Positions 3,228 through 64,000 of a DNA stretch of 64,000 nt are shown here, in pieces. The DNA lies in the IMG/VR virus record IMGVR_UViG_3300027806_000039, positions 1 through 64,000 of that record; one strand, given 5' to 3'. The stretch comes from a virus. Position 1 is the stretch's first letter. The number at the start of each line of letters is the position of its first letter. The translations under genes and the position numbers were made by a program. Under the pieces are notes generated by a model that saw only the letters and a list, made by a program, of their open reading frames with translations, was not told where the DNA came from and made no database searches.

Positions 3228-4408
3228 CGCGTCGTCATCCTCGGGCCGGCCACGTGCATCGACGCCAGCCCGCCGGCCGTGTCGTAGAGAAACAGTTCCA
3301 TCGCCTGCCGCGGGCCGATGTAGCCCTCGCTCGCGTGCCAATCGTCTGCCGGGCAGATGGCCGGGGCCGTCCGCACGATCACGCCGTCGATCGTGTCGAT
3401 CGGCCGCGTGACCTCTGCGGCCTGGTGGTGGAGGTGGGCGGTGTGCCATTCGCGATATGGGCACTTAGACCACCGGTCGGCGGCCTCGATCGCCATAAGC
3501 TGCGGCAGCTTCTTGCGGGCCTTCGTGTGGCCGTGGGTAAAGCCCAAAAGATTTCGGCCGTGGGTCAGGTACTTCCGCGGCGTGAATTCCCCCTCGACCC
3601 GCACCCGCTTATCGTTTCGGAACCGCTCGGCGAGGATGCGCTGAAAGGCGAACGTCATCGCTTCGTCGTGATTGCCGGCGACGACCAGCGTGTCGCACTG
3701 GGCCACGCCGGAAGCCGCATCGACCAGGGCGAGCATCGCGTCGGTGCCGGTGCCGAGCATCTTCGGCAGCCGTCCGTCTCGTTCCAGCGGCGTGCCGCCC
3801 GTGGTGGTGCCGTGCGGCGAATCGTAATGGAAGACATCGCCAAGCATTGCCACCGTGATCCGCTCCGGGGCATGCACGGCCGCGACCTCGAGCAGTTGTT
3901 CCGATGCCTCGCGCACGAGCCGCGCCGCGATGTCGAGGTCGTAGTCTGCCCCGGCCGTCCGCCGCCAGGCATACTTGCCGAAGTGGGGGTCGGCCACGAT
4001 GAGCACTGCCCAGCCGTCGGCATGCTTCTCTCGTTTGGCCTTTGGGCGAATTGGCTGGCGAATCTCACCCTTCGCCGCCTGAATCATCGCCTCGACGCAT
4101 TCCCGAACGGTCGGCCCAGGCCGCGGCTTCAGCCGCACGAACACGCGGTGCAGCTCGGTCACCACCGGCTCGCCAGTGGCCTTGTCCGCCGTCAGACCCT
4201 CCCACTTCGTAGCCTCGCTCGTCGCCACCTCAAACTTGGTGAGGTCGGCTTCGATGTGCCTCAGGAGGTCGTCGACTGTGCGGATCCGCGTGGACACACT
4301 GCGGGCCTCACGGCAGCCGCCTTCGGTGTCCTTCGTGTTGACCTCTTCGATCGTGATGTCACCGGCCGCCACCGCGGCCTTGGCAACTACGCTTTTCGTC
4401 GGAGCCAA
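3224..4408 (-). CDS. Calcineurin-like metallophosphoesterase
   Basis: DPHFG, GDVFH, GNHD, HGH and HLH motifs; TTG start inferred. Confidence 0.8.
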   Translation of the reverse strand: MAPTKSVVAKAAVAAGDITIEEVNTKDTEGGCREARSVSTRIRTVDDLLRHIEADLTKFEVATSEATKWEGLTADKATGEPVVTELHRVFVRLKPRPGPTVRECVEAMIQAAKGEIRQPIRPKAKREKHADGWAVLIVADPHFGKYAWRRTAGADYDLDIAARLVREASEQLLEVAAVHAPERITVAMLGDVFHYDSPHGTTTGGTPLERDGRLPKMLGTGTDAMLALVDAASGVAQCDTLVVAGNHDEAMTFAFQRILAERFRNDKRVRVEGEFTPRKYLTHGRNLLGFTHGHTKARKKLPQLMAIEAADRWSKCPYREWHTAHLHHQAAEVTRPIDTIDGVIVRTAPAICPADDWHASEGYIGPRQAMELFLYDTAGGLASMHVAGPRMTTR

Positions 4409-8100: not shown

Positions 8101-8466
8101 TGTGATGCAGCCATTTGACGAAAACACGACCTTGTCGCCGATGGAGTAGTTCGCCCCGCCGTTGGTGAGCTTGATTCCTGTCACGGCGTAGCTGCCGTCC
8201 GTCGCGCTACGGGCCGTTGTGACCGAGAACGTCGCTCCCGATCCGGTCGCTGATGGCACCGACGCCGTTACCGACAGTGTCGGGTCTGGCGGCCGCTTCA
8301 ACTGGAACGTCACGTTGTCAAGGAACGAGCACTCGTTGCAGTTCTCGGTGCCGTGGGCGAAACCCGAGAACGTTGCCGTGAGGCAGAGCGGAGCGCAGCG
8401 GGGGCATGGCTGGCATGGCGGCTCGCCACCGCCGCAGCATCCGCATGGCGTGCCGGGTAGGAACAT
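5128..8466 (-). CDS. Large tail fibre / adhesin-like virion protein
   Basis: 1112 aa, Gly/Ser/Thr-rich, repeated (I/V)TNGGxGY units, Cys-rich N-terminus; downstream of tape measure. Confidence 0.7.
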   Translation of the reverse strand: MFLPGTPCGCCGGGEPPCQPCPRCAPLCLTATFSGFAHGTENCNECSFLDNVTFQLKRPPDPTLSVTASVPSATGSGATFSVTTARSATDGSYAVTGIKLTNGGANYSIGDKVVFSSNGCITEQPEATITIATTQPAATSLRMTPAVVPSGMSVASVPVTYEQQAAEDGNPYWRVASIGSAIGGSGYTEGATVTLTPAIVYIPSTFSYVPEPGVVVQEAATVRITQINRAAPTFGVRINRAGGGAFDGGLVVGRTQGTDANGREVWSVSSVGIGWWFPSDFTASDTVSFYMTGTTATTVRAATATIAVNESGAITSFTITDGGEYYDTNGRPTAVELLTAGRYYKPGVITAVKLVDGGQIFGQNACEYVSDRVCSVCPDNYGGTLQMSLSLGATNHTMTVVRRAANNAATTLLSGSRPSLDDEGNPIPCTDLTFDAEHFSGQYSCMTNGTVTIAEGECGESSQSGCDLPEQITLTLSGMGDIYVWGSRNSGVVGMQPCPDPAGGTYERDGQQWPNFVPYSPFCDQCGKTYTMLLRGGGTLSGISGWSGSLVQQDCTVVLDRLEGCGIEYTGFMPLPPSESGFSGNFTSVSCGGGLDVPVSVSIVPVGLATTVNIAAPTNAGFAATAEVTSVDGEGGITGITITNPGEGYAREIFTRTEPDMTVTLSGGTGSGAALTATLTQSGTGESATWGVKSVAVKNGGTGYAGNEAVVFTPEEGATTDYPASAYIVTGRVEPTVKASVSGGSGASLSVTLGQSTDWNGLDIWSVSSVTVTNGGTGYTDGTNVTFTVTDGTEVYGASATISTVRSQPDVTASLPYSSGSGAVLAPSLSASGDSWTVSSVAITNGGSGYSQWDQVLISTGDIEASGSYLYVSSVDGSGAITGIGISQGGSYYRDTGVISSVNFPWYGGGGEYYKSTGIIESVTVWEPGSYYLSESTGTADVDEPAVFIISLVGSGAEATATVDGEVGSPTFGQVTSISVTQPGSDYKTSGTGWGLTINSPVGHLATLTGNETPPTPDPQDPLDCGHFWDKREPYQNRVSLNPCPSELLSKDYSMAWGGSSPHGDAYGDGLEGAEWCHTIVQVPTFYGNAPRWDVTFFDFGNGPIKCTIAPS

Positions 8467-8467
8467 C

Positions 8468-9148
8468 TCAGCACTCCGCAGCGACGAGCATCCACGTCGT
8501 TTCGACAAGGGTGCACATCACAAACCGCGTACCCGCTTCCGCCGGTGCAGCCAGGGTTGCAAACTGGTTCAACGCCGAAAATGTCTGCGACGGCGTGTAT
8601 TCGCTCCCGTCTGGGTACAGTCGCGTCACGGTTGCCACGGCACCTTTATTCCAGGCCGACGACACTTCTCCAAATCTCGCCCCTCCATCGCCAAGCATTA
8701 CCAGCGACCAATCCGAACCTTTCCAGATCACGGACTTGATCGCAAGGGACTCAAGGTCTTCGTCGCGGACCTGAACAACCCCAGCAACGGCAACTCGCCC
8801 GATGCCGTTGGCCGCGATTGGCTCAATCGCCACGCAAAACGCAGTTGTTGAAGAAGTCGGGTTGTCGATTGTGGCAATCGGCACCTCTTGAAATTGAACC
8901 GTCTCGGCATCGCTGTCTGTGTTCGTTGGAACGACGGCCATGCCGGTGATTGCCTTCACGCCCCATCGCGGTACTGCCGCCGCGCTGCTTGCGTATATCC
9001 ACGAATACGGAGCGTGTGGTCCGGAAGGTATTCCACTGCCGCCAAATCCAGCGTTTACCCGCAGCAGGCGATTCAGTCCGTTCACCTGCTCGGCGGCTAG
9101 CCGAAGCCGCTGCCCTGGCAGAACGTTGTGACGTGGGTCAGATGCCAT
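8468..9148 (-). CDS. Minor tail protein
   Basis: Position in tail module; C-terminus resembles 42838-43287 (W...T.T.T.....N.F..L). Confidence 0.55.
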   Translation of the reverse strand: MASDPRHNVLPGQRLRLAAEQVNGLNRLLRVNAGFGGSGIPSGPHAPYSWIYASSAAAVPRWGVKAITGMAVVPTNTDSDAETVQFQEVPIATIDNPTSSTTAFCVAIEPIAANGIGRVAVAGVVQVRDEDLESLAIKSVIWKGSDWSLVMLGDGGARFGEVSSAWNKGAVATVTRLYPDGSEYTPSQTFSALNQFATLAAPAEAGTRFVMCTLVETTWMLVAAEC

Positions 9149-9159
9149 CAGTCACCACC

Positions 9160-10140
9160 TCACGCGATGTTGCCGCCGCCGGCCGGAGCCTGCTGACCTT
9201 GGACGCCAGCCCTGGCCCTGCCGACCTTCTTGGCAGGGTCTGCAATTAGCAACCCTTCGGCAAACCAGTTCTTTTTCTCAAAGACTTTGTTTTTGTAGAC
9301 GTACTTTGGCCGTCGAATGAGCGTGCTGCCGCTCACCGCGTCTTCGTATTTGATCCAGATGTATTCCCAGCCTTCCTTTGGGATGGTGTAGCCAATGCCA
9401 GGCGTATACCACTCTGCGTTTGGTGCCATCTGGTTTGGTCGGCACTCAAACTCAAACGTCACCGGGGCATACGGCTGGTCTCCCTGCCATTGGCAGCGGC
9501 CTCCCATGAATAGTGATTCCCCGGGCTCAAACACTCGAAACTTCGCGTTGTTCACGGTGCCAGTGAGCTTGTGAACGGCTCCCACGAATGCGTCAGACAG
9601 TGCAATAGACGCCGGCAAAATCCACGTTTCCGAATACCGCATGCTGGGGCGCACGACGTCGATGCCTTCGACGGCGTTACCAGACACGTTGATAGCGCCC
9701 TCCATGGTTGGTGTTTCCGGATCCTCCGGATACTTCGTCTCCTCGAGGGCCTGATAGATCCGTTCCGTATGGCCTGTCGTGTCCCACGCGATTCCACCTG
9801 GCTGCGGTTTTTCAATTCCTCCGCCGCCGCCGCCGCCACCACCGCCGCTGTCGTTGTTGTCAAACTTCGGAACCAGCGTCTGGTAGGTCGCCGTGCAGTC
9901 GAAGTAGCGGTTTCCGACGCCGGCCACGTCGAGCCGCTTCCGCACCCAGAAAATTCCGGCTCCGTCGCTCAGCACGTATGGCGGTGCGTAGAGGCTGATT
10001 TGAGTGACGCAGTCGTTGAAGCCAAAGCATCGCCCGATGAGGTATCGCCGCTTCACCTCGAGGGTTTCGCCAGACTCCATCTCGTTGGTGACGGAGCCGG
10101 ACATTGAATCCTGAAGCTCGTAGCAAACTTCCACGCTCAT
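9160..10140 (-). CDS. Putative distal tail/baseplate protein
   Basis: Directly after the tape measure gene; positional analog of 43292-44173. Confidence 0.55.
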   Translation of the reverse strand: MSVEVCYELQDSMSGSVTNEMESGETLEVKRRYLIGRCFGFNDCVTQISLYAPPYVLSDGAGIFWVRKRLDVAGVGNRYFDCTATYQTLVPKFDNNDSGGGGGGGGGGIEKPQPGGIAWDTTGHTERIYQALEETKYPEDPETPTMEGAINVSGNAVEGIDVVRPSMRYSETWILPASIALSDAFVGAVHKLTGTVNNAKFRVFEPGESLFMGGRCQWQGDQPYAPVTFEFECRPNQMAPNAEWYTPGIGYTIPKEGWEYIWIKYEDAVSGSTLIRRPKYVYKNKVFEKKNWFAEGLLIADPAKKVGRARAGVQGQQAPAGGGNIA

Positions 10141-12746
10141 GCAAACGTTTCCCCGGTGCGAGCCGTGTTGTTGGCGATGACCTTCAGGATTTGTCCGTTG
10201 GCGACGGTCGCGGCCGTTCCTTGCGCGACTGCCTGCACAACTGCATTGAGTCCGTCGCTCGTGACTTGGCTGAGCCTTCGCAGTTCCTCAAACACCTGCA
10301 TGCCTGCCTGCACGCCGCCGGCCTGTCGTTCGATTGCTGGTGCCGATGCGCCTGCCGCAACAGAGCCGCCAGTTGCCGGTCCTACGGCAGGCAGGGCGGT
10401 CCTCACGGCCCCCATGGCAGTTGCCGCCGGCGAGCCTGCCACCGCCCCCATGGCAAGTTGCTGCTGTAAGGCGGCTATCTGGGCCTCGATCTCCGCCGTG
10501 TCTGGCATCACGCCGGGAGCCGTCCGGCGGGCGGGGTCGAGGGCGTCTGGGTTTGGCATCGCGTCCAGGGCCCCGCCGGCGGCCTTGGCCCGCAAGGCGG
10601 CGATCTGGGCCTCGATCTCGTCGCGGTTGGCCAACTGCTGCACCATCTGGGCGGTGTTCTCGGCCGTGGCCTTAGACGAGTCTTCGAGCGTGTTCAGTTC
10701 CGGCCCGATGCCGAGGCCCTCGCCGGAGCCGAACGTGCCGACCGATCGACTTCCGCCAGCCGCCCCAGCCTTGTCATCAGCGGTGGCACCCACTGGCATC
10801 ACGCCACGATCCACCGCAGCCGCTGCGGCGGCACCACCGGCAGCTGTGGCCTCAATGCTTCCCCGCACCACACCGTTGGCCCGGTCGCGAGCGCGGTCCG
10901 CGTCTTTCTGCATTTCTGCGATCGTGTCGAGCCAACCTTGTGCGTTCTTATCGTCGGCAGCCTGCCGCTTCCCGGCAGCCGCCCCACGAGCCGCGTCTCG
11001 GTCTGCCGCGCGGGCGTCTGCCGTCGGGGCCCGCTCGCGGGCACGGGCCACCTCGGCATCGACCTCCTTCAATGCCCGGCGCAGCCCGTTGATGGCGAAG
11101 TTCCAATCGAAAGCCGCCTGGAAGTAGAGCCCGAGCTTTTGGAAGCCGCTCTGGAGCGTGAGAATGTCGGCCCCAAAAAGGCCCATGAACCGGTCGAGTC
11201 CATCGGCCAGCTTGTCGCCGATGAATGCCGCGGCATTCGTGACGAGCGTGCGGATGTCTCGGAATGCCATGTCCCATCCGGCGACGATCCTCGTCAGCAC
11301 GATGTTCATGTTGGCCTGGAGCAGACCAAACGCGGCCCCAAAGTCGAGCCTCGACAGGGCCGCTCCGATCGCGTCGGTCTCGCGGCGAAACGTCGGGCTC
11401 AACTGACGGCCAATCACGATCGCCGCCGTGACGCCCGAGGCAAACACCGCGGCGGCGAGTCCAGCGGGTGTGAACAGGGCCGGGAGCAGCCGCACGCCGG
11501 CGGCGATCAGGCTGGCTCCCTTGCTCATCACTTGCAGGCCAATGCCTCCGACGATGGCCGCGGCCCCGAGCCCCAGCATGCCGCCGGCGACCGCGGCAAC
11601 CGTGGCGACGAGCTGCGGGTTCCGCTCGATGAACATCGTGACAACTTGCAGCATCCGGCCGAGGCCGTTGACAGTGGCCGTTGCCGTCTCGCCCATGCTC
11701 GTGATCGTTGCGATCTTCAGGTCGGCAAACAGGGCTCCCAGCCGCCGGACGGCACCGCCAAACGAGTCGAGCACCTGGGCCGCCTTGCCGCTGGCCGCTC
11801 CTGCGGAATTTTGGATCTCGCCCATGATCCGGGCGAACTCGCCGCCCAGATTCGAAAGCGTGATCGCGGCCCTCGCCCCGCGGATGTCGAAGATGTCCAT
11901 GAAGGCCGCCAGCCGGTCGGCGTTGTTCATGCCGGCCGTCGCGCCACCGAGGTCGCGGATCACGTCCATGAAGGGCCGGAGGTTGCCGGTGGCGTCCCGC
12001 ACGCTCACGCCCAGGGCGTTGAACTTGGCCTCCTCGGAGGTCATCGCCTCGAGCACGCGGGCGAGCTGCGTGCCGGCCATGCTGCCGCGGATGCCGCCCT
12101 GTGCGAGGGCACCCATGGCCGCGAGCACGTCGTCGAGCGATTGGCCTGCGGCCTGAGCCTGCGGGCCCACGTAGCTGAGCGACTCGCCGATCAGGTCCAC
12201 GCTCGTCACCGACGCATTGGCCGCCGCCTGGAGCCGGTCGGCGATGCTGCCGAAGTCGCCGGTCGAAAGCCCAAACTGGCTCATCGTGCCGATCACGACC
12301 TCGACGGCACGGGCGAGCTCCATGTTGTCGGCCGCGGCCAGGGCGAGCACCGGCCCGATACCGGCGATGACGCCGTCCGCGTTCACGCCGGCCTTCGCCA
12401 GTTCGTTCATGGCGTTGGCCACTTCCGTCGGGCTCTGGCCCATCTGCACGCCCATCTGCCGGGCGGCGGCGTTGAGCTTGGCGAACTGGTCCTCGGTGGC
12501 CTTCGTGTTGGCCCGAACCTGCGCCATCGACAGCGTGAAGTTCGCCGCCTCGCGGGCCGCGATCACGAACGGAGCCCCGAGCGCAGCCCCGCCCAGCGAC
12601 AGATTCGTCCCCATCTGCCGCATGGCCGTCCCCACGGCCTTCAGCTTGTTTTGCACGCGGGTCATCGCCTGCTGAAACGCGCCGTCCTTGGCGAAGATTT
12701 CAACGTAGGCTCCACCCGCACGAACGGCACCGGCACCGGCTGCCAT
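10137..12746 (-). CDS. Tail tape measure protein (TP901 family-like)
   Basis: AVRAGGAYVEI start, ESLSYVGP and GIRGSMAGT motifs, Ala-rich. Confidence 0.9.
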   Translation of the reverse strand: MAAGAGAVRAGGAYVEIFAKDGAFQQAMTRVQNKLKAVGTAMRQMGTNLSLGGAALGAPFVIAAREAANFTLSMAQVRANTKATEDQFAKLNAAARQMGVQMGQSPTEVANAMNELAKAGVNADGVIAGIGPVLALAAADNMELARAVEVVIGTMSQFGLSTGDFGSIADRLQAAANASVTSVDLIGESLSYVGPQAQAAGQSLDDVLAAMGALAQGGIRGSMAGTQLARVLEAMTSEEAKFNALGVSVRDATGNLRPFMDVIRDLGGATAGMNNADRLAAFMDIFDIRGARAAITLSNLGGEFARIMGEIQNSAGAASGKAAQVLDSFGGAVRRLGALFADLKIATITSMGETATATVNGLGRMLQVVTMFIERNPQLVATVAAVAGGMLGLGAAAIVGGIGLQVMSKGASLIAAGVRLLPALFTPAGLAAAVFASGVTAAIVIGRQLSPTFRRETDAIGAALSRLDFGAAFGLLQANMNIVLTRIVAGWDMAFRDIRTLVTNAAAFIGDKLADGLDRFMGLFGADILTLQSGFQKLGLYFQAAFDWNFAINGLRRALKEVDAEVARARERAPTADARAADRDAARGAAAGKRQAADDKNAQGWLDTIAEMQKDADRARDRANGVVRGSIEATAAGGAAAAAAVDRGVMPVGATADDKAGAAGGSRSVGTFGSGEGLGIGPELNTLEDSSKATAENTAQMVQQLANRDEIEAQIAALRAKAAGGALDAMPNPDALDPARRTAPGVMPDTAEIEAQIAALQQQLAMGAVAGSPAATAMGAVRTALPAVGPATGGSVAAGASAPAIERQAGGVQAGMQVFEELRRLSQVTSDGLNAVVQAVAQGTAATVANGQILKVIANNTARTGETFA

Positions 12747-15913: not shown

Positions 15914-16447
15914 CACTTTCGCTCGGTAACGCCTCTTCACACCGCCGACAGTAGCGGAGTCTCAATGTACGCGCCCCACTGGTCGGCCATCGCCGCTGCG
16001 ATCCCTTCGTAGGTCTTGCTTCTGATCTTCCAGCGGTCGGGCGACGGGGCCAGTTTGTTCTGCCCGCTCGCGGTCTGGTTCTCCCAGCGATCCCGGTGCT
16101 CCAGCACGTTCGTCGCCCGCAGATGAGGCAAGCCCTTTAGCCAGAGACAGGTAGCCTTCGACTCTGGGTGGCCGAACTGCCAAGGCTGGATGGTCTGGTC
16201 GGGCTTCCGCCAGAGCGATGACATGATGCAGACCGGGTTTTCTATGGCAATGTGCGGTATATCGGCCTTTGCTAGCCGCATGAAAAACGACACGCTCGCC
16301 TGCTGCCTGCCGTCCATTCGCTTCGCTTGGAAGTGCCTCGCCCCGCTTACGGACAGGTCGGTGCATGGCGGGTGGGCGATCATCAAGTCCCACGGGTAGT
16401 CCAGAACATCGCGGACATCGCCTTGGTAGTGCGGGCCGGGCGTCTCG
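15914..16447. repeat. Direct repeat copy 1 (identical to 63467-64000)
   Basis: Identity starts at CACTTTCGCTCGGTAAC (15914/63467) and runs to the window end; ORF translations are identical. Confidence 0.95.
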
Positions 16448-16545
16448 GTCGGCAGAAGGTCGCATGACATCGCCTCATGCCCGAGAGCCAAGAAGGCGTC
16501 CCGCACGGCACCACTGTACTCACAAGCGATCAGCACCCTTGCCAT
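15937..16545 (-). CDS. Small DNA cytosine methyltransferase-like protein
   Basis: VLIACEYSG, DLMIAHPPCT, IENP, QPWQFGH motifs. Confidence 0.8.
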   Translation of the reverse strand: MARVLIACEYSGAVRDAFLALGHEAMSCDLLPTETPGPHYQGDVRDVLDYPWDLMIAHPPCTDLSVSGARHFQAKRMDGRQQASVSFFMRLAKADIPHIAIENPVCIMSSLWRKPDQTIQPWQFGHPESKATCLWLKGLPHLRATNVLEHRDRWENQTASGQNKLAPSPDRWKIRSKTYEGIAAAMADQWGAYIETPLLSAV

Positions 16546-16587
16546 GACCGCAGATTACCGAGCGTGGCAACTGGGTCAACGCTCGTT
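16543..16587 (-). promoter_or_regulatory. Sigma70-like leaderless promoter
   Basis: TTGACC-N16-TAATCT-GCGGTC-ATG; near-copy at 17805-17849. Confidence 0.6.
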
Positions 16588-16611
16588 CAGAAGCGCGACC
16601 GCACCTGATTT

Positions 16612-16842
16612 CTATCGTTTGGTCCGCTCCAGAAGCGCCCGCAGCGCTGACGAAATACGCAGGCACTCGTCCTTGTCTGGTGGACGATGATGGCCGATTG
16701 CACTCAGTTCTGAGTCGGCAGCGACAATCGCTTCCAGTTCCGCGTCGGTGAGCGTGAGCCGATGGCTCCAAGAATCAACGGTTTGTAACGACCCGTCCTC
16801 GTTCACTCCGATGATCGGCCGTGCTGGCGTCCACTTGTCCAT
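16612..16842 (-). CDS. Small hypothetical protein
   Basis: LTDAELEAI...LRALLER; purine-rich RBS-like tract upstream. Confidence 0.55.
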   Translation of the reverse strand: MDKWTPARPIIGVNEDGSLQTVDSWSHRLTLTDAELEAIVAADSELSAIGHHRPPDKDECLRISSALRALLERTKR

Positions 16843-16874
16843 CGCGTCCCTCTCTGATTTCAGTAGCGCAATTG

Positions 16875-17210
16875 CTAAAAGTCGCCGCCGCATGACCCAG
16901 AATCAAAACTGCTTCCTGAGTCATACGAGCCACTGTCGTAACTGCTGCCTCCAGAATCGTATGAACTAGAGTCATACGACCCAGCCCCAGAATCTACCTC
17001 CGGCGTCTGGTGGCAGTGGTGGTCTTCCGATGTGTTCATCATGTCGCCAAGCATCCCTCCAGCGAGGTTGCCGCCAAGCAATCCGCCTACAAGTCCGTCG
17101 TTCGTGGCGTAGCCGAGGGCAACAGACTGCACAAAACCATCGTCAGACGATGCAGGCACGGCAGTGACGATTGCGTGCTTCGGCTTCTTTTTTCTGAGCC
17201 AGCCAAACAT
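16875..17210 (-). CDS. Gly/Ser-rich small protein
   Basis: AAGGAG RBS; SYDSG repeats at C-terminus. Confidence 0.65.
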   Translation of the reverse strand: MFGWLRKKKPKHAIVTAVPASSDDGFVQSVALGYATNDGLVGGLLGGNLAGGMLGDMMNTSEDHHCHQTPEVDSGAGSYDSSSYDSGGSSYDSGSYDSGSSFDSGSCGGDF

Positions 17211-17591
17211 GGAAACTCCTTTGGTTTCGTAGATAAGAAACGTCTTTACCTGCGGCGTGTAGTGTCAGGTTCCTTCGCAAAAAAACTGCCGGATCATACG
17301 TGCAATCCGACGAGATTCGTTGCATTTTGCATATGTTGCGGGCGTAACATATCGAATCAGATATGTTTCACAAACGAGATTCTGTAAGCATTAGCGGTGC
17401 ATTTCTCTTACAGAACAGAGCCTGTCACTTTTCGACAGTTTGTGTAGTGCCGGTGCCTGCGGGTCGCGGTGCCGGTTTATCTTTCCGGTCGCTGCCGCAA
17501 GCTGTCGCCGCCGGCGCGGCGTTGCTGTCCCGCTCGGGATCGTCGGCATCGAAATCGCACGTTTTCGACTCGGTCTGTCCCGCTCGGGAAA

Positions 17592-32676: not shown

Positions 32677-33498
32677 TCACATCAACTGAGGAGGCTTCGG
32701 AGTCTTGCTCCGCAGCTGGGACCAATCGCAATATGCCTGCTCGAAAAGTGCAGGCGACCGATGCCCGAGGTGAAGCCGGCCTGAGCCAGCCTGGGCCATC
32801 TCGCAATGAGTCGCTGAAGAACGCCTCAGGAACTTCGACGTGCCAGCGACTCCGCAGCCGTCGAGGTGCGACCGCATGATCCGCATGCATTGGCGAGGCT
32901 TGGCCACCCACCCCAGAATCCGCCCGTCGGGCGAGCGGGCCAGCATAGCGTGCACGGCTTCAAGGCACGCAGGGGAAAGGGTTCGCGTCAACGGATCGCC
33001 CGTCTTGCTCTGCGTCCACGAAAGCGAATCGCCGTCGAGCTGGTCGCCGCGGAACGACATGACATCTCCGAACCTCGCGCCGGTTTCGTAGCCAAGAAGC
33101 AGCCACGCTCGCAAAAACGTGCCGTGATCGGCACCGCTGCGCAGTCGCTTGCCATCATGCTTGCTCGCGTTGGCGACGACGGCCTGGAGTTGCGATACCG
33201 TCCACGCCTTCGTGGGCTTGCGGCGAGCCTTCATCCGCATCACGCCGCGAGGCGCGACATCCATCAAGCCGGTTTCGTAAGCCCAGCGCCAGAGCGAAAG
33301 CAGGATCGTCCGCTCACTGCGGACGGTGATGCCGCTGACCTTCTCAACGCGGGCCAGCAAGTAGCGGTTGATCCGCTCGGCCGCGACGACGCCCGCGCGT
33401 CCAGCAATCCGCCTCACATTGTGCGAGTAGAGATTGGAGACATGTCGCTCAGCGAGATAGAGCGGTGCGATCTCTGAGAATGTCGTGGGCGTGCTCAT
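32677..33498 (-). CDS. Tyrosine recombinase (second, divergent)
   Basis: TGARFG (R), SKTG (K), KFLRR (K in place of H), HLGH, QAY (Y). Confidence 0.8.
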   Translation of the reverse strand: MSTPTTFSEIAPLYLAERHVSNLYSHNVRRIAGRAGVVAAERINRYLLARVEKVSGITVRSERTILLSLWRWAYETGLMDVAPRGVMRMKARRKPTKAWTVSQLQAVVANASKHDGKRLRSGADHGTFLRAWLLLGYETGARFGDVMSFRGDQLDGDSLSWTQSKTGDPLTRTLSPACLEAVHAMLARSPDGRILGWVAKPRQCMRIMRSHLDGCGVAGTSKFLRRSSATHCEMAQAGSGRLHLGHRSPALFEQAYCDWSQLRSKTPKPPQLM

Positions 33499-33519
33499 TG
33501 CAGGTATTCCATTCCTTCC

Positions 33520-33660
33520 GTGTATTGGCCGCGTGACGTGCGGCATCCGGTCGAGTTACTCTTGGGAGGCGCGAGCCTCGACTGCGGTGGTCTGTGCGAT
33601 ACTCCCGCGGAACGACCCATGCGGCTCCGATGACAGCCGCTCGGCAAGGGTGTGCCGGTC
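33520..33660 (-). ncRNA. Candidate structured RNA
   Basis: Intergenic stems GCGGCT/AGCCGC, GTCGAG/CTCGAC, GCCGC/GCGGC and possible GGGAG/CTCCC pseudoknot. Confidence 0.35.
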
Positions 33661-38063: not shown

Positions 38064-38975
38064 ATGACGATGCGAGAGTTGCTTGAGCGGTACGCATTGC
38101 TGATGAACCTGTCGGATCGGTCGGTGACGCTGTACGGTCACACCATCGACAAGATGCAGGAGTTCCTCGGGCGTGAGCCACTGGTCGCGGATCTCGAAGA
38201 CGTGACCGTGTCCAAGTTCCTGAAGTGGCGGGGCACGAACGTGGCTCGCGGGCGGCTCGTGAGCCCGCACACAGTCGCCAAAGACCGCAGCCAGTTGCTC
38301 GCGATCTGGAACTGGGCCTGCAAAAAGAAGCTGCACCCAGGCGAGTGGCCCGGGCTGCCGCGACAGAAGAAAGTCAAAAGGACTCCGACCGCCTACACCT
38401 TGGACGAAATGAGCCGTCTAGTGCGTGCCGCCAAGGCCCGACGCGGCAGAATGTCTGGCCTGCCGGCGGCGTGGTGGTGGGGGACGATTCTCCAAGCCGC
38501 ATGGCAGACCGGCGAGCGGATCGGTGCCCTGCTCGATCTGCGGTGGCGGGAGGTCGATACGGCACGGTGCAGGCTCGTGTTCCTCGCCGAAACCCGGAAA
38601 GGGCGCGAGCGGGATCTGGTCTCGCCCATCACGCCCGAGCTTGCCGCCGAACTGGAGTCACGTAGGGGCTCACCTGAAGCCCTGGTGTGGCCCAGGACGG
38701 GCCATCCGCTCTCGCACTACGCAAGCATGCGGCTGCTCTGCAAAACCGCAGGCGTGCCCTCCAGGGCGTTCCACGCGATCCGCAAGGCGTCAGCCTCCTA
38801 CGTGGCGGCTGCCGGCGGTGATGCCACTGCTCACCTGGGGCACGCCGACCCGGCGATGACGAGGGGGCACTATCTCGATCCCCGGATCACCGAGACAAAG
38901 CGGGGGCTGGATTTCCTGCCGCCGCTGAATCTCTCCGACCCGCCAGCCGAAGGCGGCGACCGACCGGCGGCATAA
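38064..38975 (+). CDS. int: Phage integrase (tyrosine recombinase)
   Basis: AAGGAGG RBS; TGERIG, K, FHAIRK, HLGH, HY catalytic set; the only substantial plus-strand gene. Confidence 0.9.
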   Translation: MTMRELLERYALLMNLSDRSVTLYGHTIDKMQEFLGREPLVADLEDVTVSKFLKWRGTNVARGRLVSPHTVAKDRSQLLAIWNWACKKKLHPGEWPGLPRQKKVKRTPTAYTLDEMSRLVRAAKARRGRMSGLPAAWWWGTILQAAWQTGERIGALLDLRWREVDTARCRLVFLAETRKGRERDLVSPITPELAAELESRRGSPEALVWPRTGHPLSHYASMRLLCKTAGVPSRAFHAIRKASASYVAAAGGDATAHLGHADPAMTRGHYLDPRITETKRGLDFLPPLNLSDPPAEGGDRPAA

Positions 38976-61850: not shown

Positions 61851-62048
61851 TCAATCGTCAGGCGGCTCCGGCAACGGCATCCAGTGGCTCACGTCTTGCA
61901 GTGCCGGGCGTGCCATCGCCCCAACCTCGCACTCGTAGGTGATGACCTTCACATCAACGTAGGCGTGCGGCCCGTGATGGTGGACAACGAGGTAGCGTCC
62001 CTCAGGGGGCTTGCGTTCGGCGACGGGAATCCATGCCGGCTGGCTCAT
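61851..62048 (-). CDS. DUF551-like protein
   Basis: WIPVAERKP...VSHWMPLPEPP. Confidence 0.8.
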   Translation of the reverse strand: MSQPAWIPVAERKPPEGRYLVVHHHGPHAYVDVKVITYECEVGAMARPALQDVSHWMPLPEPPDD

Positions 62049-62075: not shown

Positions 62076-62384
62076 TCAGCCAGGCCACGCAGGGGGCTGC
62101 GGGAGCGGCATCCAGTGGGTCGCCCTGCCCATAACAATGCTCACGTCCTCAAGGAACTCCTCGCCAAAATAGGGGCATCTCCAATGCCCCTGAAACATAT
62201 GGGCAACCGTAACCGAGCGATCTGCCGGGTTATCTCCCTGGACGAAAACGGCAACGGCAATGCGCTCCTCTGGCAGCCGCTCCGTCACCGGAATCCAACC
62301 GTCAAGGATCGCTTGACGGTTCGCCGCAGAACCAGCGGATGCAAGAGACGGCTCAGCCGCGCCGTGCGTGTTGTCATCGCTCAT
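62076..62384 (-). CDS. DUF551-like protein starting inside attC-like site 1
   Basis: WIPVTERLP...THWMPLPQPP; N-terminus MSDDNTHGAAEPSLASAGS encoded by the hairpin. Confidence 0.8.
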   Translation of the reverse strand: MSDDNTHGAAEPSLASAGSAANRQAILDGWIPVTERLPEERIAVAVFVQGDNPADRSVTVAHMFQGHWRCPYFGEEFLEDVSIVMGRATHWMPLPQPPAWPG

Positions 62385-62413
62385 CGTTCGCCGCTCCTGA
62401 TCCTTGGCGTTCT
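62328..62413 (+). other. Integron attC-like recombination site 1
   Basis: AGAAC-CAGC-GGAT[G]CAAGAG[A]CGGC...GCCG-CTCCTG-ATCC-TTGGC-GTTCT with two unpaired bases on the left arm. Confidence 0.75.
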
Positions 62414-62417
62414 ACGG

Positions 62418-62660
62418 CTATCCGTTGCCGCACTCTTTGCACGCCGGTTTCTGGCCATCGCTGGCAATCTCCTGCGGAAACCTGTACTTGCCGCACCGCG
62501 CGCATCGTCGCTGCCTAAGTCCAGCCTTGTACTGAATGGCGGCCCACTCATCCCAATCGCAATACCCGGAAGGCGGTTGATCTCCCGGCTTATATGGCCC
62601 ACCCGAGAGCGTGATGAATCCAACTCTCCGACCGCGTGAATCCGTGATTGAAGCATCCAT
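62418..62660 (-). CDS. Small Zn-ribbon protein
   Basis: P.GY..W.EWA....KAGLRQ.RC.RCG...FPQE...CKEC. Confidence 0.6.
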   Translation of the reverse strand: MDASITDSRGRRVGFITLSGGPYKPGDQPPSGYCDWDEWAAIQYKAGLRQRRCARCGKYRFPQEIASDGQKPACKECGNG

Positions 62661-62683
62661 TGGAAATCCACAACGCTGGCGAC

Positions 62684-63208
62684 CTATGGCTCCAGAATGA
62701 AGGCTGCGATGTGCCGCCCCGTCCCCTTGCCCTTGGATCCGTCCTCGGTTGCGTGCCACCTAACGTCGCCAAGGTTTCGCACCTTCGCTGCCCCGCAGGC
62801 GGCAAGCATCATCAGAACCCACTTGTCCACCGGGTACACCACCACCGACAACTTGCCCTTCCGCTGCTCCTCAATCGCCTTTCGCATCCATGCCGTTGGC
62901 CCCTTCTTGCGGCCGTTGTGGATGATGGATCCGAATGGCGGGTTGACGTAGTTGCTGCTCCCCCACTCGCAAGTAAGTCCGTCGAATCCAGGTGGCACAG
63001 GGTACGGGCATGGGTCAAAGTCGAAATGAAACTCGGCGTCCAGTTCGGCGTATAGCTCTGGTGGCGTCAGCCAGTAGTGTTTGCCGTCGTCTCCGTTGCC
63101 GACGTGGAACTTGTTGAGGTGAGGCGGGAGCGTGCTCTGGTGCGCCGCCGTAGAACCAAGCGATGGAGCAGACGGCGGGAATGGAGTCCAAAGTGATAGC
63201 TGCGTCAT
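62684..63208 (-). CDS. Phage DNA N6-adenine methyltransferase
   Basis: WLTPPELY..L..EF.FDFDPCP, DGL...W, VNPPF. Confidence 0.8.
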   Translation of the reverse strand: MTQLSLWTPFPPSAPSLGSTAAHQSTLPPHLNKFHVGNGDDGKHYWLTPPELYAELDAEFHFDFDPCPYPVPPGFDGLTCEWGSSNYVNPPFGSIIHNGRKKGPTAWMRKAIEEQRKGKLSVVVYPVDKWVLMMLAACGAAKVRNLGDVRWHATEDGSKGKGTGRHIAAFILEP

Positions 63209-63238
63209 GTGTCCGCCGCTGCTCATCGCCAGCGTTCT
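63152..63238 (+). other. Integron attC-like recombination site 2
   Basis: AGAAC-CAA-GCGAT[G]GAGCAG[A]CGGCGG...CCGCCG-CTGCTC-ATCGC-CAGC-GTTCT. Confidence 0.8.
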
Positions 63239-63242
63239 GTGG

Positions 63243-63461
63243 CTACTTGCCGTCCGTTGGCGGGGCCGGGAGCGGCATCCAGTGGGTCGGCGGGTCTATC
63301 GGTTCTGGGTAGCAGAACCAACCCGCTTCACGATCAATGCCGCCTCCGCTGCTGGCGTCGTGCCATTGGCACTCGAAGACCGGGTCGCCCGGACGCCACC
63401 CGAGGACCGACGTGCCATCTTGCGGCAGTCGTTCGCCCACCGAAATCCATTTGCTTTCCAT
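63243..63461 (-). CDS. DUF551-like protein
   Basis: WISVGERLP...PTHWMPLPAPP. Confidence 0.8.
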   Translation of the reverse strand: MESKWISVGERLPQDGTSVLGWRPGDPVFECQWHDASSGGGIDREAGWFCYPEPIDPPTHWMPLPAPPTDGK

Positions 63462-63466
63462 GCCCG

Positions 63467-64000
63467 CACTTTCGCTCGGTAACGCCTCTTCACACCGCCG
63501 ACAGTAGCGGAGTCTCAATGTACGCGCCCCACTGGTCGGCCATCGCCGCTGCGATCCCTTCGTAGGTCTTGCTTCTGATCTTCCAGCGGTCGGGCGACGG
63601 GGCCAGTTTGTTCTGCCCGCTCGCGGTCTGGTTCTCCCAGCGATCCCGGTGCTCCAGCACGTTCGTCGCCCGCAGATGAGGCAAGCCCTTTAGCCAGAGA
63701 CAGGTAGCCTTCGACTCTGGGTGGCCGAACTGCCAAGGCTGGATGGTCTGGTCGGGCTTCCGCCAGAGCGATGACATGATGCAGACCGGGTTTTCTATGG
63801 CAATGTGCGGTATATCGGCCTTTGCTAGCCGCATGAAAAACGACACGCTCGCCTGCTGCCTGCCGTCCATTCGCTTCGCTTGGAAGTGCCTCGCCCCGCT
63901 TACGGACAGGTCGGTGCATGGCGGGTGGGCGATCATCAAGTCCCACGGGTAGTCCAGAACATCGCGGACATCGCCTTGGTAGTGCGGGCCGGGCGTCTCG
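63467..64000. repeat. Direct repeat copy 2 (runs off the window edge)
   Basis: Same sequence as 15914-16447. Confidence 0.95.
63490..64000 (-). CDS. DNA cytosine methyltransferase-like protein (identical copy, start beyond window)
   Basis: Identical to the 3' part of 15937-16545. Confidence 0.8.
   Translation of the reverse strand, partial: ETPGPHYQGDVRDVLDYPWDLMIAHPPCTDLSVSGARHFQAKRMDGRQQASVSFFMRLAKADIPHIAIENPVCIMSSLWRKPDQTIQPWQFGHPESKATCLWLKGLPHLRATNVLEHRDRWENQTASGQNKLAPSPDRWKIRSKTYEGIAAAMADQWGAYIETPLLSAV

Follow-up and report, generated by a model that had tools for sequence, protein, structure and literature searches.

The DNA described here (the window, 64,000 nucleotides) comprises the first 64,000 bases of the IMG/VR virus record IMGVR_UViG_3300027806_000039, a linear contig of 73,309 bp that is rated at 100% by CheckV and is referred to below as G000. 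The window encodes terminase, portal and HNH genes and, towards its end, carries two palindromes that are very probably integron attC sites by structure and by descent, forming a two-site, integrase-free attC cluster (CALIN) in the accessory region of a phage. Every gene around the palindromes is carried on the minus strand. The most upstream is a C5-methylase-like gene (63490-64098), followed by the third of three DUF551 genes (no. 3, 63243-63461; Pfam PF04448, 50.2 bits), which lies upstream of the second palindrome (site 2, 63147-63243). Then come a Dam-like N6-adenine DNA methyltransferase (62684-63208; 174 aa from ATG 63208, or 180 aa from ATG 63226), a small Zn-ribbon or Cys-rich protein (62418-62663; 81 aa from ATG 62663, with the frame open to GTG 62759) and the first palindrome (site 1, 62323-62418). 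The loop of site 1 contains the start of DUF551 no. 2 (62076-62384; PF04448, 54.7 bits, domain at residues 29-98), and DUF551 no. 1 (61851-62048) is the most downstream. The methyltransferase, hereafter the methylase, matches Pfam PF05869 at E 3.6e-05 and 23.9 bits, under the cut-off of 28.1, and the Zn-ribbon protein has only a weak NCBIfam Cys-rich match (E 0.0037, below the cut-off).

On the plus strand, the boxes that bound site 1 are GCCGCAGAAC (62323-62332) and GTTCTACGGC (62409-62418), and those of site 2 are GCCGTAGAAC (63147-63156) and GTTCTGTGGC (63234-63243). Reverse-complementing the right box of site 1 yields the left box of site 2 without a mismatch (10/10), and for the outer two boxes, the left of site 1 and the right of site 2, the match is 9/10. 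Read on the minus strand, which is the gene-sense strand and the predicted recombinogenic bottom strand, site 1 extends from the 5′ box GCCGTAGAAC (62418 to 62409) to the 3′ box GTTCTGCGGC (62332 to 62323), with a predicted cut between A62410 and C62409 (between G62409 and T62410 on the plus strand), extra bases in the 3′ arm opposite plus-strand positions 62341 and 62348, and a loop containing AGGAG and ATG 62384. Site 2 extends from GCCACAGAAC (63243 to 63234) to GTTCTACGGC (63156 to 63147), with a predicted cut between A63235 and C63234 and extra bases opposite plus-strand positions 63166 and 63172; ATG 63208 lies in its loop and ATG 63226 in its 5′ arm. The upstream minus-strand reading frames stop at TAG codons at 62418-62420 and 63243-63245, the latter being the stop of DUF551 no. 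3, which abuts the 5′ box of site 2; that gene has no attC of its own. A preliminary description of this DNA had reported the two palindromes with their cross-complementary ends, the stop codons flush with the core and the start codons within the hairpins, and all of these are seen in the sequence at the positions it gave.

Single-sequence folding is by itself only moderately convincing. Site 2 folds at -23.8 kcal/mol on both strands (z -2.6 and -2.8), and site 1 at -21.8 kcal/mol on the minus strand (z -0.95), while the minimum free energy structure of its plus strand lacks the hairpin. The pairing is preserved between the two sites through three compensatory double changes. Covariance models built from the wider hairpin family (R1 and R2, below) score the minus strand of site 1 at 97.5 and 66.4 bits, respectively, versus 18.9 bits for its plus strand, and the minus strand of site 2 at 128.8 and 73.3 bits versus 40.9 bits. 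Searches of the 73,309-bp contig with blastn-short and the covariance models found no copies beyond sites 1 and 2, and an Rfam scan of the sites gave no relevant match at E≤10. The two sites lie 729 nt apart on the same strand and thus form a CALIN, defined as a close group of two or more like-oriented attC sites with no intI nearby. It is the evidence of the hairpin family, and not that of the two window sites alone, that rules out chance.

To define this family, we used the best 80 of 257 methylase relatives in IMG/VR as loci; the majority of the 257 align with the window methylase only from about residue 20-25 on, and the loop and 3′ arm of site 2 encode its first ~22 residues. Model R1 was built from five copies and found more copies in L008 and other loci, and R2 was built from 18 copies; direct cmsearch was more sensitive than an R1 profile search of five records. 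R2 yielded 74 matches at E≤1 in 522 kb, or 70 after a duplicate locus (L004) was dropped, with 62 on the gene-sense strand and eight on the antisense strand that are weaker echoes of the same palindromes. Of the 80 methylase loci, 16 contain matches, frequently arranged in arrays: seven sites each in L010, L020 and L033, six in L075, five each in L021 and L032, and four each in L008 and L012. R2 is specific, with new matches in two of 75 unrelated DUF551 loci (433 kb) and matches in four of 57 bacterial or metagenome-assembled genome (MAG) loci (394 kb). Each of these four is a short MAG contig, and this methylase-based scan of genome contigs gave no host assignment. Two other approaches to finding such sites were discarded. 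A hairpin finder combining AAC...GTT with ViennaRNA energy and helix length gave 345 matches equally on both strands, being too unspecific in GC-rich DNA, and a regular expression (GAAC...GTTC with complementarity inside the site) recovered sites in L006-L008 only, missing the family because the boxes within one site do not pair.

The 62 gene-sense sites share a common architecture. AAC is present in 61-62 and GTT in all 62, and both window sites are imperfect hairpins closed by AAC and GTT. On the gene-sense strand, 61 of 62 sites have an extrahelical T in the 3′ arm opposite AAC, and all 62 have another extra base six pairs further out (G 38, C 23, A 1). The columns of the central spacer do not pair, 37 to 112 nt separate AAC from GTT, and the terminal loop measures 3 to about 75 nt. 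In the alignment, which was fitted by the model, 85.3% of stem cells are paired versus 30-39% with slid partners, and the covariation score is 0.525 versus 0.05-0.08; one stem pair, for example, occurs as AU 20, UA 18, CG 16 and GC 15 times among 70 distinct rows. Stem wobbles (G:T 20 versus A:C 30) did not favour the sense strand and were not used as evidence. The published attC layout has an R box, then a central spacer that stays unpaired, an L box bearing extrahelical bases, and a terminal structure that varies (PMC5027507). The predicted fold of the hairpin family is this layout, with an AAC/GTT R box, unpaired spacer, L-box extrahelical bases opposite AAC and variable terminal structure as in the canonical sites of that account (PMC5027507), and the attC layout proposed for the window in the preliminary description extends to the family.

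If the hairpins are recombination sites of circular cassettes, their boxes should bear the marks of exchange. We compared the seven variable bases after GTT, reverse-complemented, with the seven bases before AAC. Among 45 pairs formed with the next site in the same locus, 17 agree at 7/7 and nine at 6/7 (mean 5.47). Within the same site the corresponding figures are 0 and five of 62 sites (mean 3.37), and for the control, sites of other loci, 16 (0.45%) and 88 of 3542 pairs (mean 2.83). With identical combinations collapsed, 14 of 40 pairs remain at 7/7, a number reached in none of 20,000 permutations (maximum 4). The adjacent pair of the window itself scores 7/7. This cross-pairing is the footprint that circular cassettes leave when they are cut between AA and C and inserted into another site. 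The unit of the arrays is a hairpin, its gene or genes, and then seven bases plus AA, and the ends of each unit pair mutually. This is the arrangement predicted for a cassette boundary inside AAC, where the variable part of the cut R box belongs to the neighbouring cassette, and canonical integrons are likewise cut between the A and C of AAC (PMC5027507).

The cross-pairing bears on two alternatives that do not involve an integron. The hairpins could act purely at the RNA level, in translational coupling, processing or attenuation. Their sense-strand position at gene junctions would suit such a role, as would the upstream stop codon abutting the stem and the Shine-Dalgarno sequence and ATG in or beside the loop. 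However, an RNA function does not predict boxes that pair with the next site instead of their own, nor the divergence points at AAC and the integrase gene beside an array described below, and we consider it very improbable as the whole explanation; the hairpins may also act at the RNA level, but this does not account for the footprints. Alternatively, multi-copy imperfect palindromes in intergenic positions are reminiscent of REP- or MITE-like elements moved by another transposase (HUH/Y1). Such an origin is barely credible here, since no HUH/Y1 transposase was seen, the units carry genes, their ends pair as inverted and not direct repeats, and the match to the attC layout is detailed.

The reading of the palindromes as attC sites is further supported by the points at which related loci diverge. 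DNA shared with the window was found in three relatives only, L006, L007 and L008 (96-99% protein identity). In these the homology begins at the 5′ box of palindrome 2 (63252, 63238 and 63245, respectively) and ends at the methylase stop (62684 or 62674), and the flanks are unrelated. As the homology spans the hairpin to the methylase stop, hairpin and gene evidently travel together while the upstream genes differ. The methylase gene in all three relatives ends with CGTAGAAC, the complement of the 3′ box of its own attC (one base off in L006), and the cassette end CCGTAGAA followed by the cut and C also closes the methylase cassette in L007, L008 and, with one base different, L006; all three diverge immediately past AAC. 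The methylase hairpin with the 3′ box GTTAGGGGT is found behind seven different 5′ boxes, and in the four loci with a detected site downstream of this hairpin, that site begins with ACCCCTAAC. The circular-cassette footprint at G/TT that had been noted in the window thus recurs in independent arrays, with relatives diverging at AAC. Directly past the AAC that ends the methylase cassette, L006 (about 3533-3560) has a perfect hairpin with an 11-bp stem that is not an attC, and L007 diverges from L006 at its position; this hairpin could be an array end, a terminator or an attI-like site.

Applying the G/TT rule to the window delimits one complete cassette of 825 bp (62410-63234, minus strand), consisting of site 2 minus its first nine bases, the methylase, the Zn-ribbon gene, and TAG plus CCGTAGAA. 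Its last seven variable bases are the exact complement of the 3′ box of its own attC (7/7). At the methylase stop, we read by eye a decayed cassette end and start of a next attC (62674-62690, minus strand) that resembles the intact junction of L008, except that GTC replaces AAC. Given this degenerate junction after the methylase stop, the Zn-ribbon gene may be a second cassette that became fused. Downstream of DUF551 no. 2, neither a matching cassette end nor, on the sense strand, a box of the GCCGCAGAAC type was found. The 5′ box of site 2 differs from the complement of the 3′ box of site 1 by one base, in agreement with the cassette having been inserted into one older attC ahead of DUF551 no. 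2.

Cross-pairing by itself does not tell which neighbouring gene owns a hairpin. Three observations do. First, the bottom strand of an attC site is recognised by AAC lying in the 5′ arm and the extra bases in the arm facing it (PMC5027507). Here the extra bases lie opposite AAC on the gene-sense strand, which by this rule is the recombinogenic bottom strand. Second, the hairpin is co-inherited with the downstream gene, whose start codon it holds. Third, in a related contig with an integron integrase gene (G005, below) the array closes on the integrase side with an exact complement of the last attC 3′ box and no further hairpin. An array that ends in this way lacks nothing only if every hairpin goes with the gene that follows it, and we therefore assign the hairpins to their downstream genes. 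For the same cassettes, PHROG matches were obtained in eight of ten sense frames versus one of ten antisense frames, and every cassette gene tested lies on the predicted attC bottom strand; the antisense orientation of the genes to the canonical attC top strand, as previously described for the window, is confirmed. The longest open frame per strand did not separate the strands (24/44), and the PHROG matches were used instead.

The hairpins also provide signals for translation. In 18 of 26 sites with at least 65 nt between AAC and GTT, an ATG opens a frame of at least 80 aa out through the 3′ arm, and in about a third of the sites both the start codon and the ribosome site lie inside the terminal loop. 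The upstream frame stops at the TAA of an R-box TAAC in 17 of 62 sites, so that the final base of the gene is also that of the cassette; a TAG nine nt before the cut occurs in five sites, including both window sites. The preliminary description had suggested looking for N-termini of the site 1 type elsewhere, and the leader encoded by the site 1 loop (beginning MSDDNTHG and ending ASAGS; window 62328-62384) does recur in L093 (283-680) and L104 (2965-3066), where it is joined in frame to gene bodies that are unrelated. These attC-encoded leaders on unrelated bodies may be a trace of cassette genesis and bear on the open question of cassette origin. Cassette cargo is dominated by DNA methyltransferases, which make up six of the ten sense frames tested and belong to five PHROG families. 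Such orphan methyltransferases are likely to be anti-restriction genes.

An integrase was identified in one relative. Tyrosine recombinase matches occur in three of the 16 records with sites, and one of these, G005 (26,452 bp; L165/L166/L086), encodes a 325-aa protein matching the NCBIfam model TIGR02249 'integron integrase' at 416.9 bits (cut-off 265). The gene, intI, lies at 10945-11922 of the contig (L086: 1180-2157), its start 370 nt past the array end. In the canonical top-strand view it faces the array as usual, with its 5′ end towards the array as in canonical integrons (PMC5027507). The integron spans 8366-11922 and comprises at least five attC sites, then a junction, in which the 10-mer at 10564-10573 complements the last attC box at every base, and then intI, which is followed by a large serine integrase gene. 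Besides the latter, G005 encodes tail fibre, tape measure, major and distal tail proteins and a replication initiator. With its integron integrase (IntI), array and phage genes, G005 is a fragment of a temperate phage with a complete integron. The mark of a complete integron, an intI gene next to an array that encodes a tyrosine recombinase with the extra domain specific to IntI, is present in G005 and absent from G000. Scanning IMG/VR with the G005 IntI returned G005 itself, distant recombinases at 27-29% identity and one stretch of 59 residues at 47%. In G011 (L088, 1534-1743), a 69-aa C-terminal fragment of a tyrosine recombinase stands directly after a methylase cassette with two sites; it may be a decayed integrase.

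Several results weigh against the attC interpretation and against a functioning cassette system in this phage. Site 1 by itself folds no better than shuffled sequences, and 12 of the 45 adjacent pairs agree at 4/7 or fewer, although we suspect that these poor pairs reflect undetected intermediate sites or decay. The R boxes of the window (GTAGAAC, ACAGAAC, GTTCTAC and GTTCTGC) depart from the RYYYAAC/GTTRRRY consensus, which in the family is strictly followed by only 16 of 50 distinct 3′ boxes. Of 53 distinct 5′ boxes, 15 follow it strictly and 42 have a pyrimidine immediately ahead of AAC. RYYYAAC/GTTRRRY has been described as a consensus, with AAC alone conserved in all attC sites (PMC5027507). 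IntI adjacency is known from one contig, G005, and neither profile searches nor a search with the G005 IntI found an IntI in the 73-kb contig G000, extending to the whole contig what had already been remarked of the window. The window does encode two tyrosine-recombinase-like genes, at 32677-33546 (minus strand; no NCBIfam match and a weak PF00589 match) and at 38064-38975 (plus strand; 303 aa, weak Xer matches only at 28.9 bits, no TIGR02249 match, and BLASTP E 4.5 against the G005 IntI). Neither predicted protein resembles IntI. Finally, no empty allele, which the preliminary description had proposed to look for, was found in IMG/VR, where the closest relative of DUF551 no. 2 has only 40% identity, and neither a 62409/63235 joint nor the proposed 63234/62410 circle junction occurs in the contigs of the metagenome runs X17, X19 and X20, in which rare forms would be invisible, so that the absence of these joints has no bearing on activity.

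The metagenomes themselves offer a broader picture of site 1. Twenty (20) runs, with the labels freshwater metagenome or fungus metagenome, contain the stretch, and 16 of them are possible sources. Contigs of X17, X19 and X20 share the core of site 1 (about 62328-62412, five to nine differences) with unlike flanks on both sides, and in X19 the summed depth of this core reaches up to about six times that of neighbouring phage sequence. Many contexts and high depth fit one attC type serving many cassettes. Three listed joints were disregarded, their sides being 22-24 letters between DUF551 paralogues, and the X21 raw reads gave a single read.

These results have to be weighed against a further alternative, in which the sites are attC by descent but a fossil in this phage, having arrived by homologous or illegitimate phage recombination with no integrase acting now. 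The contig without IntI, the decayed cassette junction past the methylase stop, the DUF551 no. 2 and no. 3 genes without matching cassette ends and the lack of junction variants among the metagenome contigs would all be accounted for, and most methylase loci lack any attC, 64 of the 80 viral ones and 53 of the 57 from genomes. Yet both hairpins are intact with all attC features, the cassette ends still pair at 10/10, and cores of the site 1 type occur in other contexts in the same metagenomes. On balance, we regard a fossil as unlikely, though it deserves serious consideration.

For the window, we propose that the 825-bp unit (62410-63234) would have entered a pre-existing attC before DUF551 no. 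2 through recombination between two attC sites, with the gene-sense strand folded and an IntI from an ancestor, a host or some co-infecting element as the enzyme. Lying on the attC bottom strand, the genes would be read from the phage's own transcript and not from the integron Pc promoter, and a terminal loop that holds both ribosome site and ATG would let each cassette bring its own translation start.

Integrons are best known from bacteria, where they store genes for resistance and defence, and phage integrons have only recently been reported, from few genomes. Qi et al. (2023; PMC9892861) described integron components in 21 phages, including 17 CALINs and five methyltransferase cassettes, and reported IntI1-mediated integration of five of six phage attC sites tested. 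The window and its relatives resemble the CALINs in the account of Qi et al. (PMC9892861) in having integrase-free attC clusters with methyltransferase cargo in phage genomes, and, as in that study, there is one case of a complete integron in a phage or prophage. The phage attC system put forward in the preliminary description is thus supported by layout, footprints and the G005 integrase, but its novelty is lowered by these phage-borne attC clusters. Here a large family is found in metagenomic viral contigs, with mobility shown by comparative footprints and not by assay as in Qi et al. (PMC9892861). The footprints go beyond motif matches and show real cassette exchange among metagenomic phages. 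Furthermore, the cassettes of Qi et al. (PMC9892861) are in the usual direction or have divergent attCs, whereas all genes tested here lie on the bottom strand; a search of that article's text for terms on antisense or opposite orientation of genes and on attC start codons gave nothing, and its supplements may list orientations. Phage-borne attC clusters are therefore already known, while the inverted layout with starts in the hairpin loop seems to be undescribed.

The inverted layout also departs from canonical cassettes, in that the Pc promoter could not express reading frames on the bottom strand, and in the loop start codons, the frequent R-box TAA stop and the window R boxes that differ from GTTRRRY (PMC5027507). 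Two other systems show partial likeness to the arrays described here. Among sedentary chromosomal integrons, inverted toxin-antitoxin cassettes, reportedly the subject of work by Richard et al. in 2024, are said to be a minority with their own promoters. They are similar in that genes are oriented against the array, but here whole arrays are inverted and apparently read through by a phage operon. The PeSLs of T4-type phages are units of a promoter and stem-loop at gene junctions, thought to recombine by homology; like the present hairpins they are stem-loops at gene junctions bounding shuffled phage accessory genes, but they are not known to have an AAC/GTT core, extrahelical bases or an integrase.

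The inverted gene orientation frees the cassettes from the integron promoter and, together with the attC-loop start codons, suggests a plug-in design for expression suited to a phage operon. We tentatively extend this to a more general proposal, to which we would give somewhat less than an even chance: that a set of phages across lineages keeps its own integron-type platform in which all cassettes are 'backwards', one member having a resident IntI. The bottom strand would be present in the mRNA, the loop would supply the ribosome site, start codon and a short leader, and the R box the stop. Cassettes would plug into an early transcript, and the arrays would mainly hold an exchangeable stock of methyltransferase and counter-defence genes. 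If so, cassettes would be expressed wherever they were inserted, and the leader shared by L093, L104 and the window would be a trace of the making of new cassettes.

Upstream of the palindromes, G000 contains a direct repeat of 1407 bp with 99.4% identity (window 15914-17320 and G000 63467-64873), and weaker similarity extends to about 19265 and 67283, respectively. The repeat duplicates the C5-methylase module 47,553 bp apart, and its boundary at 63467 is six nt before the ATG of DUF551 no. 3. Given this repeat, the contig may represent two phages joined or nested, or an assembly chimera.

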